Notes: generated by a model not told the origin, from the sequence alone. A DNA stretch of 64,000 nt from an uncultured Bacilli bacterium (GCA_910578855.1 CAJTRV010000004.1:5551-69550); one strand, 5' to 3'. Positions 53,854 through 64,000 are shown, counted from the first letter of the stretch. A program made the numbers and translations.

Positions 53854-54230
53854 AATTTTTCTCCTAACATTATTTCCATAATTTCTTGAATTCGATTAAA
53901 GTGACCATTTAGATAATGATACCCAATTAATGCTTCTAAACCAGTTGATTCTTTATAAGTTACAATGTCAGTATGCTTAGGATGACGAGATCCTTTATGA
54001 TTCCTGGCACGTTTCACAATCTGAATCTCTTCGGTTGTTAATGATTCCTGATCTAGTAACATTTTTAAATAACGACTTTGGGCTTTGGCACTAACATATT
54101 GAACAGCTTCTTTCTGAAGATCATTCACTTTACAAAGACCTTTTTTTAATAACAGAGTCCGAATAACAACTTCATAAATACTATCACCAACATAAGCCAA
54201 CGCCAAAACATTTAGGCAATCTGTTTTCAT
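53823..54230 (-). CDS. mrnC: Mini-ribonuclease 3
   Basis: LALAYVGDSIYE RNase III-like motif. 135 aa. Confidence 0.8.
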   Translation of the reverse strand: MKTDCLNVLALAYVGDSIYEVVIRTLLLKKGLCKVNDLQKEAVQYVSAKAQSRYLKMLLDQESLTTEEIQIVKRARNHKGSRHPKHTDIVTYKESTGLEALIGYHYLNGHFNRIQEIMEIMLGEKLCISMEKMSH

Positions 54231-55108
54231 ACAAGTTCCTCAATTCGATCAAAGGTAATTCCTTTTATTAGACCACTTTTCATATCGTTTAAAATGAGAT
54301 TCATCACGCGGTCATAATCAATTTCCCCACCCTGAATCATACATCCTCGACGTTTACCAATGATATCCAACGTGTTAACCATATCTTCTTCATCAATAGT
54401 CGTAATTCCATAACGTGATTCTAACTCCTGAGGATAATAAGTATATAGCATGTTCAAAATGTAACAGACCACATCATAAATAGGCAATACTTCCTCTTTA
54501 ATTGCCGTTAAACTTGCGAGATTAAGGGCAATAGTTTGATCATCAAACTTCGGCCATAGTACCCCTGGTGAGTCTAACAATTCAAGACGCTGATTGATGC
54601 GAATCCAATCCAATGACTTCGTCACTCCAGGACGGTTTCCAACATTGGCAACCTTTTTTCCAACTAAGCGATTGATCAATGTGCTCTTTCCAACATTGGG
54701 AATCCCGACAACAAGGACCCGAATACGTCTTGATTTCATTCCTCTAGCAATCATATCATCCATCTTATCTTGCATCATCGCTTCAGTCTTTTTCACTATT
54801 CCGGTTGTACTTTGTTGATGCTCTAAATCAACCCCCATTACTTGATAACCTAGTTGTTCATAATACCGAATCCAGCGCTCTGTTTCTTTTTTATCACATA
54901 GATCCATCTTGGTCATAATTAACAACTTCGGCTTATTTCCAATAATCGATTCAATATCTTGAATCTTTGATGAGTATGGCATCCGAGCATCGATTACTTC
55001 ATAAACAACATCAATAACACTCATTTTTTCCTTCATAATTCGCTTGGCTTTCGCCATGTGACCGGGATACCAGTTGATTGTCGTATTTTGTCCTTTATTG
55101 TCGTTCAT
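54227..55108 (-). CDS. rbgA: Ribosome biogenesis GTPase A
   Basis: WYPGHMAKAKR, DARMP and NVGKSTLINRL circularly permuted GTPase motifs. The start MNDNKG has an AGGAAGTG RBS. Confidence 0.85.
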   Translation of the reverse strand: MNDNKGQNTTINWYPGHMAKAKRIMKEKMSVIDVVYEVIDARMPYSSKIQDIESIIGNKPKLLIMTKMDLCDKKETERWIRYYEQLGYQVMGVDLEHQQSTTGIVKKTEAMMQDKMDDMIARGMKSRRIRVLVVGIPNVGKSTLINRLVGKKVANVGNRPGVTKSLDWIRINQRLELLDSPGVLWPKFDDQTIALNLASLTAIKEEVLPIYDVVCYILNMLYTYYPQELESRYGITTIDEEDMVNTLDIIGKRRGCMIQGGEIDYDRVMNLILNDMKSGLIKGITFDRIEELV

Positions 55109-55559
55109 TTGTTTCACTTCCTTTAGATTTATTTTTATATTTAACATATTCTTCAATTTTTTTATTATAGTTCTTTAAATCTTCTACAAATTGAGGCTTA
55201 AATTGATTTAAATAATCAATGATTAAATCAGCATATTCATCAATATTTTCATCATCAACTATATCTATGAGATATTTATTGATTCCTTTTTTAGTATTTA
55301 TTCTTTCTACATAAAAGGCTAACAAATTAGTTGGACCTATTTTTTCTTTTGCTGATAAAACAATAGAAATCAAATTTTCTCTTGATGCATAATATCTCGG
55401 TTTAAATCCATTTGACCTAGAAAATAATATCAAAGTACAACCAATAAATAATTTATCTGAACCATTTTTAGGAAATGTTTTGTTTGCAAATTCAATTAAA
55501 CTTTCTGTATTACCCTGTTCGTAATCATCATATAGTTCCATTAAAATTCTATTTATCAT
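55095..55559 (-). CDS. Hypothetical protein (cassette 1 variable partner B1); its stop overlaps the rbgA start by 14 nt
   Basis: 154 aa. The C-terminal residues KSKGSETNERQ are encoded by the rbgA RBS region. Confidence 0.5.
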   Translation of the reverse strand: MINRILMELYDDYEQGNTESLIEFANKTFPKNGSDKLFIGCTLILFSRSNGFKPRYYASRENLISIVLSAKEKIGPTNLLAFYVERINTKKGINKYLIDIVDDENIDEYADLIIDYLNQFKPQFVEDLKNYNKKIEEYVKYKNKSKGSETNERQ

Positions 55560-55569
55560 TTTATCTCCT

Positions 55570-55845
55570 CTATTTATATAGACTTTTTATAACTCTATTA
55601 ATGCAATCTTTGGCACTTCTGTTATTATTTGAAAAACTAATTTTTACTAATGTCCCATTTACTTTAAAAGCATATGGATTCTTTGTGGAAGCAATAAAAT
55701 CCAATATTCTTTCATTACTAGGTTTTCTTCTATCTATTTTTATATTTGTTATTTCATCCACATCTTCTAATTTTACATCATCAAGATTTACATTTCTACA
55801 TCTTTCTAATTTTTCTGCTAATTCTTTAATATTATATTTATTCAT
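55570..55845 (-). CDS. Small conserved protein A1 (paralogue of 57697-57996)
   Basis: MNKYNIKELAEKLERCRNVNLDDVKLEDVDEI...: 47 of the first 49 aa are identical to A2. Confidence 0.55.
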   Translation of the reverse strand: MNKYNIKELAEKLERCRNVNLDDVKLEDVDEITNIKIDRRKPSNERILDFIASTKNPYAFKVNGTLVKISFSNNNRSAKDCINRVIKSLYK

Positions 55846-55927
55846 AAAATCACACTCCATATTAATTATAAAATCAAATACAATTAATGTTAAATGTGCA
55901 ATTTTTTATTATAAATGATAATCTTTA

Positions 55928-56953
55928 CTAATCTTTATTATTTTCTGAAGTTTCTAATAATTTTGTACTTTCAATAAATTTATCGAAGTCAGAAATATAT
56001 AATTGGTCTTGTTTTTCCTTAAACTTATCATACTCTTTATATGCAAGTTCTTGAGCCACTTTATGAGATATTTTTCCTGCATCATGCAGTATTTCTTGCC
56101 CATTAAATTGTAAAAACGCATCCAATTTTTCTACCCAATCTTTCATTGTCATCGCATTATGATTTTCTGCTTGTAATTCAGCATAATCTAAATACATAGT
56201 AACTATTCTATTTAAGTTTTTTAATTCTTTTTCTGTCAAATAATTTTTAGCAATATCAACATCATATTTATAAATCGTTCCATCAGGAGAACCTGTCCAA
56301 TTTGTTAAACCCATATTGTCTTTTTCTGAATCAACTCTATTATAAATAATCTCTGCAGCAGTATTACCAGTGACTGAATAATGAAGTTTATTCTGCACAG
56401 TTTTAAAAAAAGTTTTAGTGATTTCTGAATCTTTATCATAATCAACACTACAAGATGAATATATATCTGTTATCTTTTGGTAAAATCTTCTTTCACTAGA
56501 ACGAATATTTCTAATTCTTTCTAGTGTTCTTTCAAAATAATCTTCTCCAAAAATATAATTTGGATTTTTTAATCTCTCGTCATCCATAACAACGCCAGTA
56601 ATTAAGTATTCTTTTAGAACTTTTGTTGCCCATATTCTAAATTGCGTTGCTTTTTTGGAATTAACTCTATAACCTACAGCAATAATCATATCTAAATTGT
56701 ATATTTTAGATTTTCTTCCACCTGTACTTTCGTCGGAAATTCCGACAGAAGTTTCTTCCTTAAGTTCACCACTATTTAATATATTATTAATATGTTCTGT
56801 TATGGTACTTCTACCTACTCCAAATAATTCAGCAATCAAATTTTGCGTCAACCAAATATCATTATTAATTAATAATACATTCACTTTGATATCATTATTA
56901 TCATCACGATATATTAAAAAGTCGTGGGTAGTTATTTGTAAATTATTTTTCAT
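55928..56953 (-). CDS. RhuM-family (virulence protein RhuM / Bro-N-like) protein
   Basis: WLTQ..IAELFG...TI.EHI.NI...GEL...S...YNLDMIIAVGYRVNSKKATQFRIWATKVLKEYL...DDERLKN matches the RhuM family core. Confidence 0.7.
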   Translation of the reverse strand: MKNNLQITTHDFLIYRDDNNDIKVNVLLINNDIWLTQNLIAELFGVGRSTITEHINNILNSGELKEETSVGISDESTGGRKSKIYNLDMIIAVGYRVNSKKATQFRIWATKVLKEYLITGVVMDDERLKNPNYIFGEDYFERTLERIRNIRSSERRFYQKITDIYSSCSVDYDKDSEITKTFFKTVQNKLHYSVTGNTAAEIIYNRVDSEKDNMGLTNWTGSPDGTIYKYDVDIAKNYLTEKELKNLNRIVTMYLDYAELQAENHNAMTMKDWVEKLDAFLQFNGQEILHDAGKISHKVAQELAYKEYDKFKEKQDQLYISDFDKFIESTKLLETSENNKD

Positions 56954-57215
56954 TTATTTTCACCGCTTTCTTATGTTCTTAAATGTCGTAATCACCTATC
57001 TAATTTCTATTATAAATAGCGCAAAAATTACTATATTTTTATGAATTTTTATTGTTTTTTATCATTTTTTAATGAAAACATGCAAGATATAAATTGGATA
57101 GTTTCCTTTATTTATAAGGGTTTAAGGGTGTTCTTAATTAAATCGTAATCAACCAGTTTATGTTTGCCTGATTTTGTCGATTTTCATTATTCATTTATTT
57201 CACTTCCTTCAATTC
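56954..57215. repeat. Inter-cassette repeat R1 with a leader/promoter region plus a pseudo-copy of the rbgA RBS + 18 codons (MNNENRQNQANINWLITI*)
   Basis: About 85% identical to 58900-59160. The pseudo-rbgA start lies at 57138-57194 on the minus strand. Confidence 0.7.
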
Positions 57216-57704
57216 AATATTATTTTCTAATAAAACGCTTTCTAATGTTTCATTTTCGTTTATAATATATAAGTTCTCATAATTTCTTTGCAAACAATCC
57301 TCATAGAATGGAACAAATACATTTCCCAAGCCACTAATAAAACTTTCATTATTACCTCGATTTATACACTTTCTCTTTACATCTTCCCAATTATTAATAT
57401 TAGGATATGCTATACTGTATTTAATATTATTTTTATCGAAATAATCGAAGTGTTCTGGTTTTAATTGAACTAAAACAACATCATATTCCTTTATAGCCAT
57501 TCGAATGGCTTTATAGTAATTCTTTGGCCATTCACTATTTACTTCTCTTTTCGTTCCTTTTCTTGCTTCAACAGGTACATTTTCAAGATTAGTATTAATA
57601 TATTTAAAATTACTCGATTCTAAATCAATTACATTCCTATATTTTTTACCCAAAATGCTTTTTCCACACGTTGCAAATCCTGCAATTATTATTCCCTTAG
57701 CCAT
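57195..57704 (-). CDS. Small P-loop NTPase/kinase (zeta-toxin/AAA_33-like)
   Basis: GFATCGKS Walker A. 169 aa. The C-terminal LKEVK* is encoded by the RBS copy of R1. Confidence 0.6.
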   Translation of the reverse strand: MAKGIIIAGFATCGKSILGKKYRNVIDLESSNFKYINTNLENVPVEARKGTKREVNSEWPKNYYKAIRMAIKEYDVVLVQLKPEHFDYFDKNNIKYSIAYPNINNWEDVKRKCINRGNNESFISGLGNVFVPFYEDCLQRNYENLYIINENETLESVLLENNIELKEVK

Positions 57705-57996
57705 TATTTACCTCTTGTCTATATAAATTTTCTAAAATTTTAGTTAAACAATCATCTGCAGTTAAATTACTATTTTCTGAAAATCTTATTCTAACTAATT
57801 TCCCATTGACTTTAAATATATATGGGTTCTTTTTCTTCATTACAAACGCTAATATTCTTTCATTACTAGGTTTTCTTCTATCTATTTTTATATCTGTTAT
57901 TTCATCCACATCTTCTAATTTTACATCGTCAAGATTTACATTTCTACATCTCTCTAATTTTTCTGCTAATTCTTTAATATTATGTTTATTCATATT
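57697..57996 (-). CDS. Small conserved protein A2 (paralogue of A1); overlaps the downstream kinase gene by 8 nt
   Basis: MNKHNIKELAEKLERCRNV...: the 5' half is ~95% identical to A1 at the nucleotide level. The C-terminal third is divergent. Confidence 0.55.
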   Translation of the reverse strand, partial: NMNKHNIKELAEKLERCRNVNLDDVKLEDVDEITDIKIDRRKPSNERILAFVMKKKNPYIFKVNGKLVRIRFSENSNLTADDCLTKILENLYRQEVNNG

Positions 57997-58056
57997 ATAC
58001 CTTCTTTCTATAATAATTTTATTATTTAGAAAGAAATAACACAAATGTGCAAAATA

Positions 58057-58899
58057 CTAGATATTATCTTTTTCTCCTAATAGTTTTATCTTTTCTGCAT
58101 TATTAAGTATATCAAGTTGATACTTAGCAATGCTACTTAATATTTCAAATCTTTCTTCTTTGCTTTTTCCTTCTTTAATTAGTTCTGCATTATGTGATTC
58201 TAAATTAGATAATACTGTTAATTCATTTATCGATGCATAATCTCTAACATTTGAGTTTTTTGCTAAATTCGGATTAAGTTCTCTCCATCTTTTAGCAGTT
58301 GTGTTAAATAAGGCAACATTTAAAATATCTGCTTCTTCTGCATACTTTAACCATTCTCTATCTTTATAATAATCATTATCAGGTAATATATAATTTTTAA
58401 TTGCATCTGTATGAATAAGATAATTATTTTTGGTTAAGATTCTTTTTATATCCCATTCCCTATTTTGATTTTCTAACTCTTTTAGTCTTTCAAATTCTTT
58501 TATCAAATATAGTTTAAAAACCGGACTAATAGAAGATGCAAATTCAAAAGCAATGTCTTTATGAGCATAAGTTCCACCATATTTTCCACGCTTCGAATAT
58601 ATCCCAATTGCATTTGTTTTACTACACCATTCTGTAACACTTAGTGTAAAAGTATGAAGTCCTGCCTCACTTTTAAACCCGTCGAATTCGACGGAATTAA
58701 AATTTGGATTGTAAATTGACTCCCAAGTACCTAAAAATTCTAAAGTAATTCTATTTCTTAACCAATTTCTGATAACATCATCTGATGTAGATTTTCCTTC
58801 TTTAAACTTGGTAAAATCAGAAATACAAATATAATCGCTATCATTTATATTTGTTATGTTCACTTTAATATTTTGAACTTCAATTATTTTGTTTGGCAT
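58057..58899 (-). CDS. KilA-N domain protein
   Basis: IRNWLRNRITLEFLGTWESIYNPNF...GGTYAHKDIAFEFASSISPVFKLYLIKEFERLKE matches the KilA-N family. Confidence 0.7.
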   Translation of the reverse strand: MPNKIIEVQNIKVNITNINDSDYICISDFTKFKEGKSTSDDVIRNWLRNRITLEFLGTWESIYNPNFNSVEFDGFKSEAGLHTFTLSVTEWCSKTNAIGIYSKRGKYGGTYAHKDIAFEFASSISPVFKLYLIKEFERLKELENQNREWDIKRILTKNNYLIHTDAIKNYILPDNDYYKDREWLKYAEEADILNVALFNTTAKRWRELNPNLAKNSNVRDYASINELTVLSNLESHNAELIKEGKSKEERFEILSSIAKYQLDILNNAEKIKLLGEKDNI

Positions 58900-59160
58900 A
58901 TATTCGCCTCTTTTCCATGTCCTTAAAATTCGTAATCACCTATCTAATTCTTATAATAAATAATACCAAAATTATTAGTTTTTATATTTTTAATTATTTT
59001 TTAATGAAAATATGCAAGATCTAATCTAGATAATTTTCTTTATTTATAAGGGTTTAATGGTATTCTTAATTAAATCGTAATCAGCCAGTTTATGTTTGCC
59101 TGATTTTGTCGATTTTCATTATTCATTTGTTTCACTTCCTTTATTATTTAACATTGAGAA
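58900..59160. repeat. Inter-cassette repeat R2 (pseudo-rbgA start at 59070-59126 on the minus strand)
   Basis: Homologous to R1. Ends with cattattcatttgtttcacttccttta, identical to the real rbgA RBS region. Confidence 0.7.
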
Positions 59161-59312
59161 TTTAAAAAATTTGCAATTTGTTCTAAATTTTTAAATATTT
59201 TTCCATCATTTCTTATAACTATTCCTCTTGCACCATATCTCATTCTAGGCTCATTCATTTCAATCATACTTTCGCCTAAATCTTCATCAGTTATTTTACA
59301 TATTAATTTCAT
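59148..59312 (-). pseudogene. 54-aa ORF, probable truncated remnant (NUDIX-like N-terminus?)
   Basis: MKLICKITDEDLGESMIEMNEPRMRYGARGIVIRNDGKIF...: it terminates inside R2. Confidence 0.25.
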
Positions 59313-59338
59313 TAATATCATCTCGCTTTCATTTTATA

Positions 59339-59863
59339 TTACAACTTGTATTCTTTTATCTCACAATTCTTCAATCCACGATTTAAAAACCAACCATCAT
59401 TAATGCCATCAAAATATGCACTAAAAGCTTTTGAAACACCACTATGTGCAACAATTAAAACACTTTTATAATTTTGAGTTTTAAGTTCATCTAAAAAATT
59501 ATATATTCTATCAAAAAAGTCTTTTATATTTTCAGAGGTTCCATATTGAATTGTTGTATTATAATTCCAATATTCATCACGATTAGTTATTTCAAGAGGT
59601 TTACCACTTAAATCTCCACAACTTCTTTCTTGAATTCTATCATCAATAATAATTTCATTATTATTAGCATTAATAATATTAGCTGTGTGTTTTGCCCTAA
59701 TTAAAGGTGAAGAAATTATAATATCAAAGTTTATATCTTTAATTTTGTCTCTTAATTCTTCTGCTTGACTTATTCCAAGTTCAGTTAAATCTTCATCTTT
59801 TGTATTATATTGTTTCAATGCATTATGAGGTACTTCACCATGTCTTACTATATATATTTTCAT
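59339..59863 (-). CDS. Histidine phosphatase family (phosphoglycerate-mutase-like) protein
   Basis: IVRHGE catalytic motif and AHSG. Confidence 0.7.
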   Translation of the reverse strand: MKIYIVRHGEVPHNALKQYNTKDEDLTELGISQAEELRDKIKDINFDIIISSPLIRAKHTANIINANNNEIIIDDRIQERSCGDLSGKPLEITNRDEYWNYNTTIQYGTSENIKDFFDRIYNFLDELKTQNYKSVLIVAHSGVSKAFSAYFDGINDGWFLNRGLKNCEIKEYKL

Positions 59864-60084
59864 TTATTGACTCCTTTTTTATAGAATTTTTATAGTAACA
59901 TTTTATCATCGAGGATATATATTTATTTTATTATTGATACCATTATATTAAAATCATACTCATTTTTACTATTTTTATCTGTTTCTAAGGTTATATGATT
60001 ATTCTCTGTTTTTCCTTTAAAATAAAGCAAATCAGCTATTTTAAATTGTCGTGTCATTTCGCGTACACAAGCCAGGAAGTCAGG

Positions 60085-60710
60085 CCCATATGTTCTTTAT
60101 TTGAATCAACTCTATTATATATAATTTCTGCTGTTTGTTTTGATACAGCAAAATGCATTTTGTTTTGTACTTTTTTAAAAAATTCAATTGATATTGGAGA
60201 TTTAAAATCATAGTCAATACTTGTAGCATATATATCTGTTATTTTTTGATAAAATCGCCTTTCTGATAACCTTATTTCTCTAATTTCTTCTAATAATTTT
60301 TCAAAATAATCTTCTCCAAAAATATAATTTGGATTTTTTTATCTTTCGTCATCCATAACAGCATCATTAATTAGATATTCTTTTAAAACCTTTGTTGCCC
60401 ATATTTTAAATTCTGTTGCTTTTTTAGAATTGATCCTGTATCCAACTACAATAATTACATCTAAATTATATATTTTGGTTTTATATTTTTTACCATCAGA
60501 GGCAGTTATCGAGGATTCCTCGATAACTGAATCCTGATTTAATGCATTATCTTTAGAAATTGCAGATTTTTTTATTTCCTTTTCATATAAATCTCTAGCA
60601 CCTTTAGCAACTCCTCCGCCTCTTTTTGCTACATTTAAATTTTCTTTTAAACCTTGCGGATGTTCTTCTCTTGCAATATCTCGTGTTGCAATCTCTCCTA
60701 TATTTGTTCA
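60085..60710 (-). pseudogene. Degenerate second copy of a RhuM-family gene (middle/C-terminal part, frameshifted)
   Basis: Nucleotide similarity to 56230-56760 (shared strings such as tcttctccaaaaatataatttggattttt, tgttgcccatatt). Absent from the ORF track because of stops. Confidence 0.55.
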
Positions 60711-60717
60711 CTAGCTT

Positions 60718-61263
60718 TCATTCCAGACCACCCCTTATAGATTTCATTGGTTTGGTTATGCCTCCTTCTTTCCAAACATCTGTAAGTTTAAATCTATCTA
60801 CAACCCCCATTAGTCTTGCCTTAATCCATTCATCAGAGTACCCTTTATTACGATAATAATTTACTGCTCTATTTATTGCAATTTCAGGATCAAATACTTC
60901 ATCAATCCTCTCACTACCAAGACTCGCTAACCAAACTTTAAATGGTTCGGCCTTAGGGCTAGAAACTGATTCAATTAATCTTAATATTCCATTTGTATCT
61001 AAAGTATCAGTTATACGATTTTTACCATCCCGGGCCTCCATTTTCAACTGCACGATTTCTTCGTGCAGTTCACTTCCTTCATAAATTAATCTTCTTTTTA
61101 AACCGCTCCAATAATTTCTTGGGATTTTTGCTTCAGTTAATACACTTATTACATCAGCAACGCTAAAATAATACTCTTCTTTTTCACTATCCCAAATGCT
61201 TCTTATTTCTTTACCTTCAAATAAATTTGATATTGTTTCTAATTTGTTGTTCAAATATAACAC
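60718..61263 (-). CDS. DinD/Bro-N-like protein (truncated relative to ~270 aa family members)
   Basis: FEGKEIRSIWDSEKEEYYFSVADVISVL resembles the DinD N-terminus (FEEIRHYGTEGQEFWSARELAPLL). Confidence 0.5.
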   Translation of the reverse strand: MLYLNNKLETISNLFEGKEIRSIWDSEKEEYYFSVADVISVLTEAKIPRNYWSGLKRRLIYEGSELHEEIVQLKMEARDGKNRITDTLDTNGILRLIESVSSPKAEPFKVWLASLGSERIDEVFDPEIAINRAVNYYRNKGYSDEWIKARLMGVVDRFKLTDVWKEGGITKPMKSIRGGLE

Positions 61264-61440
61264 CTCTTTTCTATGGTCTTAAATGCCGTAATCATCTTTC
61301 TAATTCTTAAATAAAAATATGGAAAATTTAAAATCGTACAACCTCCTTATTTATAGGGATTTACTTAAGAGTGCAATAAATCGTAATCAAACAGTTAATT
61401 CTGACTGATGAAAAACTTTTTTGATTACTTTCGCTATTCT
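61264..61440. repeat. Inter-cassette repeat R3 (diverged copy; pseudo-rbgA start decayed)
   Basis: Shares ttaaatg(t/c)cgtaatca, tttaag.accat and ttgattacgattta blocks with R1/R2. Confidence 0.5.
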
Positions 61441-61503
61441 TTTTTCTTGTCTCATTTTTCCCTTTTGATATATATCCATATTTTTCACTTTCTTTTCAAT
61501 AGT

Positions 61504-62064
61504 TTAAAGTTTTTTACCCATTACAATGGGTCTATCATCATAAATATGAATTCTGTTATTTATATCACTAATTAATGCAACAAGTTTTCTAGGATTTTCT
61601 ACTCCTTCAAAACTCATTCCATTTTTTATTTGTTCAATTAAATTATTAGCATAAAAATTAAAAGATATATCTCCATAATTATTTTTTTCTCTTGCAATTC
61701 CAATATGTTCTATATCAGATATATTTTCTATCCTAAATCCATTTTTAGAATTATATAGAGCTATCCTTTTATTGGTAATAAAATATTCATTATTTTTCTT
61801 TTTATATTTTAAGAATATATTATAAACTAATCCATAAATTAAACAAATTGTTAATATGCCCAAAGTAAGAAAAATTATCAAAATTTCAAAATTTAGTATT
61901 TCCCCACTTTTTATACCTATTATAATTAATATCCAAAATAATAACAATACGGCAAAACCTAATAAAAATCTACCATATTGTTTACTAGTCTTACTAACGT
62001 TTGAAACACCATAGAATAATATTTTTTCATTCTCTTCCAATTTATTTATAAACTCATTTTTCAT
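61504..62064 (-). CDS. Membrane protein with a bacterial PH (bPH_2-like) domain
   Basis: Two TM helices then a YFITNKRIALY motif. Confidence 0.5.
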   Translation of the reverse strand: MKNEFINKLEENEKILFYGVSNVSKTSKQYGRFLLGFAVLLLFWILIIIGIKSGEILNFEILIIFLTLGILTICLIYGLVYNIFLKYKKKNNEYFITNKRIALYNSKNGFRIENISDIEHIGIAREKNNYGDISFNFYANNLIEQIKNGMSFEGVENPRKLVALISDINNRIHIYDDRPIVMGKKL

Positions 62065-62201
62065 TTATCTCTCTCCTTACAATTTATTAAATATAATACC
62101 ATTTAATAAAAGAGAATTCCTTTATTAAAATCATTCTAGTTTTATCCACTATAGATTCCTCATAAGATAACCATTTATTCATTTCGAAAATGCATTTATT
62201 T

Positions 62202-62840
62202 TTATTTAAAGATTACATATGGAATGCCCATTTTATGATAAACATCATAAGCTCGTGGCCACGAGAACATTCGGGCAATTAATAAATTATAAAGTTCATC
62301 AAACATGATGATAGAACACAATGTAATTGAAAGCATTAAAAATAATTTTTTATTCATCCGTTTCGCAAGAAAAAAACACATAGGAATTATGACATACATC
62401 AACAATAAACTAGATAACCCAAAGAACATAACACTTCTTAAACAAACAAAACCATGAATGTTTCCAAAGTTTAAAATTTCCGAATTATAATCCCAACAAC
62501 GCATTCCATTTCCAATGATATACATGCCCAAACCTGATATATATTCGAGAATCCCAGTTGCAAAAAAACTAATTAAAAATACCCAGAATGGTTTTTTTCG
62601 ATGCTTGTAAGTTAATAGATAAATCATAATTGAACCTGTCGCATATATATTAATCCATGGTAAGAAATTACCACCTCGCCAATAAAATTGTTTCATACCA
62701 CCATTAAAATAATAAAATATAAATTCATAGATCCAACCAAAAATTCCGGTGATAACGATTAACAGACAACAAATTCCTAGCATCGTCCATTTATCAAACG
62801 AATGATTATTTTCTATATAATGTTTATACCATTTCTTCAT
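62202..62840 (-). CDS. Polytopic membrane protein (possibly the putative ABC-transporter type IV / DUF1113 family)
   Basis: 6 predicted TM helices. Family assignment is from memory only. Confidence 0.4.
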   Translation of the reverse strand: MKKWYKHYIENNHSFDKWTMLGICCLLIVITGIFGWIYEFIFYYFNGGMKQFYWRGGNFLPWINIYATGSIMIYLLTYKHRKKPFWVFLISFFATGILEYISGLGMYIIGNGMRCWDYNSEILNFGNIHGFVCLRSVMFFGLSSLLLMYVIIPMCFFLAKRMNKKLFLMLSITLCSIIMFDELYNLLIARMFSWPRAYDVYHKMGIPYVIFK

Positions 62841-62896
62841 ACTACTAAACTCCTACCTCATTATATCGTAAACAAAATATTAACTTAACAATTGTC

Positions 62897-64000
62897 CTAC
62901 TTTCGTTCTTCCATTTTCAATATTTTTTGTTTTCCTTTTTCATAACTGCTATCTAACACTTGCTGCTGCTTTAATAACTGTTCTTGTTGAGCCATAACCG
63001 TTTCTTCTAACGATTGTAATTCCTCTAAAAATTGTTCCACTTCAGGACTTCGATCATAAGCGAACTGTCCCATAAACTCCATCTTTAACGATTGAAGTTG
63101 ATCAAGTGAATCAGCGCAAAAATCAATCGACATCATCAAAGCATCTTTCTCTGTTTTTAATTGTTTCATTATCTTTTTTAAATCAAAATAAGCAATATCC
63201 TCGTTTCGGTCTTTGACCATATTGCGCATACCGCGAATTCCATGGTTCGTAAGCAATATCCCAGTTAGTAAGCCAAAGGCATTCTTGCGACTCTTTAATA
63301 ACGTAAAAACCCCCAGACTAGCAAACATTGTATGTTTAATTAACGATCCTAATCGAAAGAGACGACCACGTTTTCTCTTATGTTGTGGCAGTTTCCAAAG
63401 ACTCGCCTGTAATGACTCAATCATAATCCGTTGTTTGGTAATTTCTTGACTCATTTTTTTCTTTTCCAGAGTAATATCGACCATTTTCTCTTTTTGTTTA
63501 TTCAATACTTGTTTCTCTTTTTCTTTTTTTACCACTTGCTGCTTCTGCTTCACTTGCAATTGGTGAGTTCGCTCTTGACACTTCTTCAATCTTGATGCAA
63601 AGATAAGATCGGATGTTAAAAAATGTTCCTTATCTATCTTTTTTAATGTCTTATCAGAGGCAAACTTTGAAAAACGATATTGCTTTCGCATCGATAATTC
63701 TGACATATGACAAGAAAATATTTTATCATAAAGATTCGATAATTGAAGCAGAACCATTCCTATTTCCTTGTCATCAATTGATCCAGTATATTTTGCAAGT
63801 TCCCGGTCAAATTCTTTTAGTTTTTCATGACTTTCTTCTAAATATTGAGCAAGTACCACGATCGCTGGATCTTTACCCTCACCGACTTTTTTTCGTTGTG
63901 GAGAAACCAAGACCATTTCCGTGGCTTCTGCTAGCGCTATTTCTTTTTGTTCTAATTGTTCACTTACCGCATCGATCGTATCAAGTGTTTCCTCAAGTTG
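62897..64000 (-). CDS. Coiled-coil protein, C-terminal part (the frame stays open upstream to the window end)
   Basis: K/E/Q-rich heptad-like sequence. No stop between 63917 and 64000 in frame. Confidence 0.45.
   Translation of the reverse strand, partial: QLEETLDTIDAVSEQLEQKEIALAEATEMVLVSPQRKKVGEGKDPAIVVLAQYLEESHEKLKEFDRELAKYTGSIDDKEIGMVLLQLSNLYDKIFSCHMSELSMRKQYRFSKFASDKTLKKIDKEHFLTSDLIFASRLKKCQERTHQLQVKQKQQVVKKEKEKQVLNKQKEKMVDITLEKKKMSQEITKQRIMIESLQASLWKLPQHKRKRGRLFRLGSLIKHTMFASLGVFTLLKSRKNAFGLLTGILLTNHGIRGMRNMVKDRNEDIAYFDLKKIMKQLKTEKDALMMSIDFCADSLDQLQSLKMEFMGQFAYDRSPEVEQFLEELQSLEETVMAQQEQLLKQQQVLDSSYEKGKQKILKMEERK

Follow-up and report, generated by a model that had tools for sequence, protein, structure and literature searches.

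A mosaic DUF6870 gene in a tandem array of X-A-Y modules at the 5' end of rbgA in an uncultured Bacilli bacterium

A stretch of 64,000 nucleotides from an uncultured Bacilli bacterium (GCA_910578855.1 CAJTRV010000004.1:5551-69550), hereafter the window, contains two copies of a small gene, A1 and A2, which share their first half, differ in their second half and are each followed by a different gene. The question is whether these pairs are two-gene systems of the antitoxin/immunity type, in which a conserved regulatory half is recombined onto a partner-matched half, as the preliminary description proposed, or parts of another kind of structure. All genes of the A1/A2 region are on the minus strand. 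A1 (55570..55845) encodes a protein of 91 aa and A2 (57697..57993) one of 98 aa. A2 is of the mainstream type, named type I; A1 shows type I sequence in codons 1-47 (55705-55845) and a rare type II sequence in codons 48-91 (55570-55704). In the codon alignment, both genes show four differences in 141 nt over codons 1-47 (97.2% identity) versus 41 differences in 132 nt over codons 48-91 (69% identity), and the full-length proteins are 74% identical. The maximum chi-square method places the identity breakpoint at nt 143, in codon 48 (chi2 = 43.8), and none of 5000 permutations reached this value; the sharp split previously noted is real, and a uniform divergence of A1 and A2 is not what the alignment shows. 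An independent repeat search recovers a 151-nt repeat with 95% identity (55696-55846 and 57844-57994), in agreement with the ~95% given before for the 5' ~150 nt, and the count of 47 identical residues among the first 49 changes trivially, to 46. Behind A1, after a gap of 10 nt, is the gene B1, which encodes 154 aa, and behind A2, with an overlap of 8 nt, is a gene encoding a 169-aa Walker-A protein, as had been described. The junction alignment shows that A2 does not have the usual stop codon and runs seven codons further (QEVNNG, then stop) into the start of this next gene.

Synonymous divergence between A1 and A2 rises from 0.087 for the 5' half to 0.864 for the 3' half, and this tenfold contrast in dS means that the break reflects different histories and not unequal protein constraint. 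Related loci were used for comparison: 79 loci plus the window, which make 80 sources with 109 A copies, of which 65 are intact and many are broken. Compared half by half with the 65 intact copies from related loci, the first half of A1 is 99% identical to those of L001 and L002, whose second halves share only 73% identity with A1. Over its own second half, A1 shows 93% identity to L024, 91% to L035 and 87% to each of L029 and L079, whose first halves are only 72-74% identical. Segment by segment, the leader, the RhuM gene upstream of A1, the spacer and codons 1-47 match L003, L005 and L018 at 85-97% identity, and codons 48-91 together with B1 match L035 at 90%, with reciprocal segment identities of 20-73% across codon 48. 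Since the nearest relatives of the two halves differ and the flanks switch at codon 48, A1 is the product of a single crossover at this codon, which joined a type I leader-RhuM-A(1-47) segment to a type II A(48-91)-B1 segment. The divergent C-terminus of A1 is hitch-hiking sequence of another A lineage and not an interface tuned to B1. The proposal of two-gene systems that diversify by recombination inside the small gene therefore stands in one part, as the crossover in A1 re-pairs upstream and downstream genes, and fails in the other, that of matched modules like those of toxin-antitoxin systems. It is hardly credible that no recombination took place and that the contrast is due simply to far stronger purifying selection on the 5' half of A than on the 3' half: the family-wide median dS is somewhat lower in the 5' half (0.48 versus 0.78), but this explanation does not account for the tenfold change across the breakpoint, the different relatives of the two halves or the change of flanking donor at the same point, and protein constraint is greater in the 3' half.

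Neither A nor B1 had been recognised as belonging to a known family. This still holds for B1, which shows no match in Pfam, NCBIfam, PHROG or PADLOC, and is superseded for A, since A1 and A2 belong to the Pfam family DUF6870 (PF21757), with E values of 6.4e-20 and 1e-15, respectively. The match of A1 covers residues 17-84 (model positions 2-69 of 71) with 71.3 bits, and that of A2 covers residues 17-86 with 57.9 bits; the gathering score of the family is 24.4 bits, so both match the whole domain well above it. DUF6870 proteins are found in Bacillota hosts and have a length of ~90 aa; the literature search found no paper mentioning the family. The domain spans both halves of the gene, so the N-terminal module and the C-terminus that had been told apart belong to a single domain. 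Among 63 family members in a diverse alignment, the best-conserved motif (I.ID....ERILDF...KNPY.FKV...VK..F) spans the A1 breakpoint. Family-wide dN/dS is 0.17 in the C-half and 0.28 in the N-half; the C-half is the more constrained one, which is the opposite of a conserved half with a fast-evolving binding half. The AlphaFold model of A (pLDDT 91.8) shows three helices and a beta-hairpin, in which no HTH-, RHH- or AbrB-like fold was found, and no structural neighbours of the model were found in PDB or BFVD. An Rfam scan of 54000-64000, with E values up to 1, gave no match, so neither the leader nor the 5' half of A contains a known RNA element. A match of A2 to type IV Cas11 in PADLOC is marginal (E 0.0054) and was treated as chance.

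B1 (55095..55559, minus strand) encodes an all-alpha protein and occupies the variable position behind A, hereafter Y, nearest to rbgA; its last codons and stop lie inside the ribosome-binding site and start region of rbgA. A homologue of B1 (P0213), 67-70% identical, is a solitary gene on 62 contigs, with no A nearby, and sits between a UDG-like gene and a gene encoding an SNF2 helicase. The gene behind A2 (57195..57704, minus strand) encodes a protein with a Walker-A motif (GFATCGKS), which matches phrog_4182 (3e-23), a group with no assigned function, and is without a match in Pfam or among PDB sequences; its former designation as a P-loop kinase goes further than the motif and this match allow. 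In the related loci, the Y position contains genes encoding ASCH, histidine phosphatase (His_Phos_1), HAD, several GNAT, dCMP deaminase, nucleoside deoxyribosyltransferase-like, nucleotidyltransferase (NTP_transf_6), DUF218 and DUF1835/DUF3658 proteins, and unassigned proteins such as B1. The expectation that A homologues are followed by variable genes is borne out by this neighbourhood comparison, with ~38 sequence clusters among ~90 A copies, mostly small enzymes and not known toxins. Even the rare type II C-half is found with four or five partners: B1 in the window, the clusters c16, c9 and c23, and, in L035, a B1-like start downstream of the C-half, which the ORF filter did not call. Among A copies with C-halves at least 93% identical, 38 of 58 pairs have different downstream genes.

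The reading of A-Y as toxin-antitoxin or immunity systems, in which recombination exchanges a partner-specific C-half of A, has a real resemblance behind it: as in type II systems with modular antitoxins, a small upstream gene is tightly coupled (10-nt gap or 8-nt overlap) to a variable gene and has recombined internally, and the partners include GNAT proteins, a group with known toxins. However, A is a single domain, without a DNA-binding or regulatory domain separate from a toxin-binding one; its C-half is the more constrained half and does not co-vary with the partner, as the discordant pairs with near-identical C-halves show; and the partners are mostly housekeeping-type enzymes, not of toxin families, which occur without A, as the solitary B1 homologue does. 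Neither A, B1 nor the Walker-A protein has a convincing PADLOC match, no regulator-like fold was found in A, and the canonical neighbour of DUF6870 is a serine recombinase, as described below. On this balance we regard the toxin-antitoxin or immunity reading as very unlikely, and the modular evolution of a conserved regulatory half with a partner-matched half, as first proposed, is not upheld.

The A-Y pairs are parts of a longer unit. This is a module of ~2 kb containing a ~55-nt copy of the start of rbgA, a ~200-nt leader, a gene X, A and Y, in which A is the constant backbone gene. In gut Bacilli MAGs, one to four X-A-Y modules per locus follow each other head to tail on the same strand at the 5' end of rbgA, in an array flanked by rplS-lepB on one side and rbgA-rnhB-topA on the other; rbgA is present in 52 of the 80 sources. 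Immediately upstream of A, 87 of the 109 copies show a gene from four defence-island X families, which correspond to the PADLOC entries PDC-S05 (RhuM), PDC-S22 (KilA-N), PDC-S13 (Bro-N type) and PDC-S02 (YhcG/DUF1016). Exceptions to this order are modules without A, such as that of L135, with a RhuM gene followed by an MBL gene, and modules without X. Homology between A copies extends to the last sense codon and no further; beyond that point, each Y supplies the stop codon of A together with its own ribosome-binding site; many Y ORFs, including B1, end inside the next rbgA-like repeat.

The window contains two intact modules and a decayed older part, all on the minus strand. Module 1 shows a repeat copy (DR1, 59085-59141) and a leader (58900-59084; joint span 58900..59141), followed by an X gene (58057..58899) encoding a 280-aa KilA-N domain protein (Pfam KilA-N 4e-19; PDC-S22 6.8e-116), A2 and the Walker-A protein gene. 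Module 2 shows a repeat copy (DR2, 57153..57209), a leader (56954..57152) that begins with TTGATTACGATTTA and is of the kind conserved upstream of all four X families, an X gene (55928..56953) encoding a 341-aa RhuM-family protein (Pfam Virulence_RhuM 4e-109; PDC-S05 4.9e-140), A1 and B1. Both X genes match their PADLOC models over the full length, and the RhuM gene is 92-94% identical in nucleotide sequence to those of L003, L005 and L018. The decayed part (59148..61399), delimited by tblastn and by the repeat families D1, D3 and D8-D10, corresponds to one or more older modules with no A copy left. It contains a degenerate leftmost leader (61242-61399), a Bro-N pseudogene (60501-61254), a RhuM fragment (60085-60509), a histidine phosphatase gene (59339-59863; Pfam His_Phos_1 3.5e-36) and a short ORF fragment (59148-59321).

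Leader and repeat define the ends of the modules. A leader of the TTGATTACGATTTA type precedes X genes in 71 of the 80 sources searched, and in the window the ~270 nt of repeat plus leader directly before the RhuM gene and those before the KilA-N gene are 88% identical to each other. The third repeat (DR3, 55070..55123, minus strand) is the true ribosome-binding site of rbgA with its codons 1-13 (ATG at 55108), and the junction between AACTGG and TATCC at 55070/55069 is the point where the modules and rbgA meet. DR2 is a copy of this ribosome-binding site with a pseudo-start (MNNENRQNQANINW...), ends with AACTGG and holds the stop codon of the Walker-A protein gene. Across the loci there are 115 copies of the rbgA-start repeat, of which 51 precede the true rbgA and 64 precede a leader; every copy ends with AACTGG, and exactly after it the copies diverge and continue either with TATCCAGG.CATATGGC, which encodes the RbgA residues Y-P-G-H-M-A, or with TTGATTACGATTTA of the next leader. 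The repeat variant follows the preceding Y gene, with an identity of 0.83 for the same Y versus 0.76 for different Y, and the sequence after the repeat has no effect on it, which identifies the repeat as the right end of the module. Direct repeats of the 5' end of the target with a restored target, as expected of integrative elements, are thus found in the window, with three copies and an intact rbgA. A larger element with ParA, ParB, sortase and pilin genes shows the same AACTGG junction and the same TTGATTACGATTTA left end.

The more distant contexts of DUF6870 were taken from viral and metagenome scans and one RefSeq record. In the IMG/VR loci L094-L110, relatives of A are directly followed by large serine recombinases (LSR) of 550-580 aa, often two in tandem. 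The order in L094 is A, LSR572, LSR528, repeat and rbgA, so this element adjoins rbgA. In almost all of 24 metagenome loci retrieved with a DUF6870 of the Clostridia type, the DUF6870 gene is followed by two or three recombinase genes, and in the RefSeq record, from Vescimonas fastidiosa, a 'DUF6870 family protein' gene is ahead of at least three 'recombinase family protein' genes. Some of the arrays contain smaller serine recombinases, a reverse transcriptase or a HerA-like system, and recombinases are present in the related elements L016, L050 and L070. The modules of the window contain no element-encoded site-specific recombinase; unrelated small genes occupy the place where the family usually has downstream serine recombinases. 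SprB and phiC31 gp3 are recombination directionality factors of large serine recombinases, and they share with DUF6870 that a small family-specific protein is encoded beside the serine recombinase genes of an element; A differs in having no sequence or fold similarity to known factors, and in the window it has no adjacent recombinase. The most likely guess, a tentative one, is that A might be an accessory or directionality factor for serine recombinases that was kept in modules without them. At ~55 nt, the direct repeats have a length typical of tyrosine integrases and not of serine recombinases, and they would fit an integrase of the tyrosine class better as the one behind the array. BLAST clustering, inspection by eye and partial Pfam revealed no tyrosine recombinase among the clustered neighbour genes from the 80 sources.

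Direct observations are the module order, the repeats, the A1 crossover and the occurrence of serine recombinases beside DUF6870. Because DUF6870 genes elsewhere are directly upstream of two or three LSR genes at element edges and one such element adjoins rbgA, the modules of the window are read as recombinase-less derivatives or cargo modules of rbgA-targeting integrative elements, accreted in tandem and reshuffled by homologous recombination, an account that we consider reasonably probable. On this account, integrative elements would insert at codon 13 of rbgA and pile up in tandem, short modules would be mobile as well, and the rbgA-like end of each element would restore rbgA after insertion. 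The modules would then have lost their recombinases, and homologous recombination through the leader, X and A may re-pair X with Y, as seen for A1. An excision circle of a module, if formed, should show a junction in which the repeat behind Y is joined to TTGATTACG; neither such a circle nor an empty site was seen. Streptococcal ICEs integrate in the 5' end of rbgA (PMC4701971), with direct repeats of 12-54 bp that include the upstream region and with the N-terminus of RbgA preserved (PMC4701971). These elements, together with IMEs and decayed ICEs in streptococci, resemble the array in their target, in direct repeats over the upstream region and first codons, in the kept RbgA N-terminus and in standing side by side, and the ParA/ParB/sortase element occupies the same junction as the modules. 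Unlike them, the modules of the window are only ~2 kb long, contain no integrase, relaxase or conjugation gene and show a regular leader-X-A-Y order, and the recombinases of their relatives are of the serine and not the tyrosine type. A tandem array of integrative-element-derived modules at rbgA, with an unusually regular grammar, is the best-supported reading.

The exact fit of ~38 different Y genes between the last codon of A and the repeat is more than accretion and homologous recombination alone would lead one to expect, so a site-specific cassette explanation has to be weighed. It holds that a trans-acting recombinase inserts single-gene Y cassettes at the end of A and in front of the rbgA-like repeat, on an integron-like platform with A and the repeat as a fixed recombination and expression scaffold. 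As in integron arrays, compact cassettes of diverse function lie in one orientation beside a fixed site; their boundaries are sharp, with Y supplying the stop codon and ribosome-binding site where A homology ends and terminating at or within the repeat, and serine recombinases are present in some arrays. However, there is no IntI or other integrase fixed beside the array; no attC-like hairpins or paired inverted repeats were found at the cassette ends, and conserved X and A genes stand between the cassettes. The repeat variant, and partly the 3' half of A, move with Y, which indicates that the inherited block is larger than Y, and the sole documented exchange took place midway along A by homologous recombination and not at a cassette boundary. 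Insertion of single Y cassettes is on this evidence an improbable account. A broader proposal, in which DUF6870 and the rbgA-mimicking repeat form a gene-cassette platform of gut Bacilli, integron-like in function and unrelated by origin, and DUF6870 is the accessory factor with which serine recombinases acting in trans mobilise the recombinase-less modules, is rather doubtful; if it were true, Y genes and X defence genes would be taken up, expressed and passed from one fixed scaffold to another.

A further alternative takes X-A-Y for a three-gene anti-phage system, with X as sensor, A as adaptor and Y as an effector that modifies nucleotides or small molecules. All four X families are PADLOC defence candidates, several Y proteins act on nucleotides (dCMP deaminase, nucleoside deoxyribosyltransferase-like, histidine and HAD phosphatases, the Walker-A protein) and defence genes are present nearby in related loci. 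Against it stand modules without A or without X, and a nearly constant A beside X genes of four unrelated families and Y genes of dozens; only 65 of the 109 A copies are intact, and the conserved neighbour of A elsewhere is a recombinase. We find this reading quite unlikely. The locus gives the first genomic context, and the first contextual clue, for DUF6870, an uncharacterised Pfam family, and the consistent position of the family just upstream of tandem LSR genes marks it as a concrete candidate for an accessory or directionality factor of enzymes that are wanted for genome engineering. It also shows a regular, hypervariable array of accessory genes at an essential gene, that of the GTPase RbgA, in poorly known uncultured gut Bacilli, in which homology in the conserved small gene A lets defence-type genes be paired anew with small enzymes. 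A lesson for annotation is that a mosaic small gene with a tightly coupled variable gene behind it is not necessarily part of a toxin-antitoxin system.

Strong mosaic pairs of A copies concentrate in two stretches, codons 48-55 and codons 72-79. The possibility that codon 48 is a recurrent recombination hot spot was set aside for lack of independent support, because A1 itself is probably involved in most of the pairs at codons 48-55 and because the contigs L062 and L067, which end at codons 47-51 of A, may come from the same organism. Likewise discarded was the idea that the 5' half of A contains an element functional at the nucleotide level, as the lower family-wide dS there is equally well explained by polarity of homologous exchange from the conserved X side; 68 of 69 mosaic pairs are more alike on the left side. 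The spacer between the RhuM gene and A1 contains a promoter-like site (55865..55893, minus strand; TTAACA, 17 nt, TATAAT), which matches 11 of 12 consensus positions, the best in the scan, and is a possible candidate promoter for A1-B1.

The open reading frame predicted mechanically for rbgA (54227-55156), which encodes 309 aa from a TTG codon, is over-extended, and the conserved rbgA start is an ATG at 55108, downstream of this TTG. From this ATG, rbgA overlaps by 14 nt the gene B1, which encodes the 154-aa protein following the first DUF6870 gene, A1 (B1 at 55095-55559, minus strand). Downstream of rbgA, the window shows genes encoding mini-RNase III and a TrmH-type methyltransferase, together with a sigH-like gene, whereas most of the related loci from other contigs show rnhB-topA in this position.

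In the two internal repeats resembling the rbgA start, at 59085-59141 and 57153-57209, the ribosome-binding site is still strong and an ATG is retained, and each repeat contains a putative mini-ORF, an 18-codon RbgA pseudo-start predicted to encode MNNENRQNQANINWLITI followed by a stop codon. The left end of the array is occupied by a decayed module (60085-61399) containing a Bro-N pseudogene, which is frameshifted and fused to a RhuM fragment, and a degenerate leader. No copy of A, the DUF6870 gene, is left in this module, and its degenerate att-like left end (61377-61399) reads AACTG followed by TTTGATTACGATTTA.

The AACTGG junction, at which the repeats end and the leader or rbgA continues, is not used by the short modules only. 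A larger element, seen without its far end or an integrase gene, which contains genes encoding ParA, ParB, a sortase and a SpaA-type pilin, was found in L087 (9276-16276) and also in L011, L014, L075 and L077. This element has its insertion point precisely at the AACTGG junction that the modules use, and it starts with TTGATTACGATTTA, as the module leaders do.

Several public contigs, 98% identical to the window, break off inside A where its conserved 5' half ends; L062 ends at codon 51 of A and L067 at codon 47. These ends look like assembly breaks at a repeat boundary, and the module arrays at rbgA are probably under-assembled in MAGs.

Some of the arrays include serine recombinases. L016 (1994-4817) shows, after a Bro-N gene, a split serine recombinase gene and then a gene encoding a 528-aa reverse transcriptase (Pfam RVT_1), both in the place usually occupied by A and the variable gene Y; the RVT_1 protein is possibly a defence-type reverse transcriptase borne by a small recombinase element. 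L052 (7177-12271) and L050 (25-5665) contain, inside the array, a set of three genes, encoding proteins of 424 aa, 587 aa (a HerA-like ATPase) and 320 aa, accompanied by a 411-aa serine recombinase, and in L050 this set is immediately upstream of a copy of A. This set looks like a defence system carried by a small serine-recombinase element.

In another lineage, L135/L138 (3526-5245) show a gene encoding a metallo-beta-lactamase-fold protein, which matches the anti-Pycsar Apyc1 family, directly after RhuM and with no A between them; an AF_0155-family gene lies between RhuM and A. The recombinase-bearing relatives L094, L095, L098 and L100 contain, before A, a gene for a PemK/MazF-like toxin, one small ORF and a gene encoding a sigma-70-like protein. 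Since these three take the position of the X gene (RhuM, KilA-N, Bro-N or YhcG) upstream of A, the autonomous elements and the short modules are built on different backbones.
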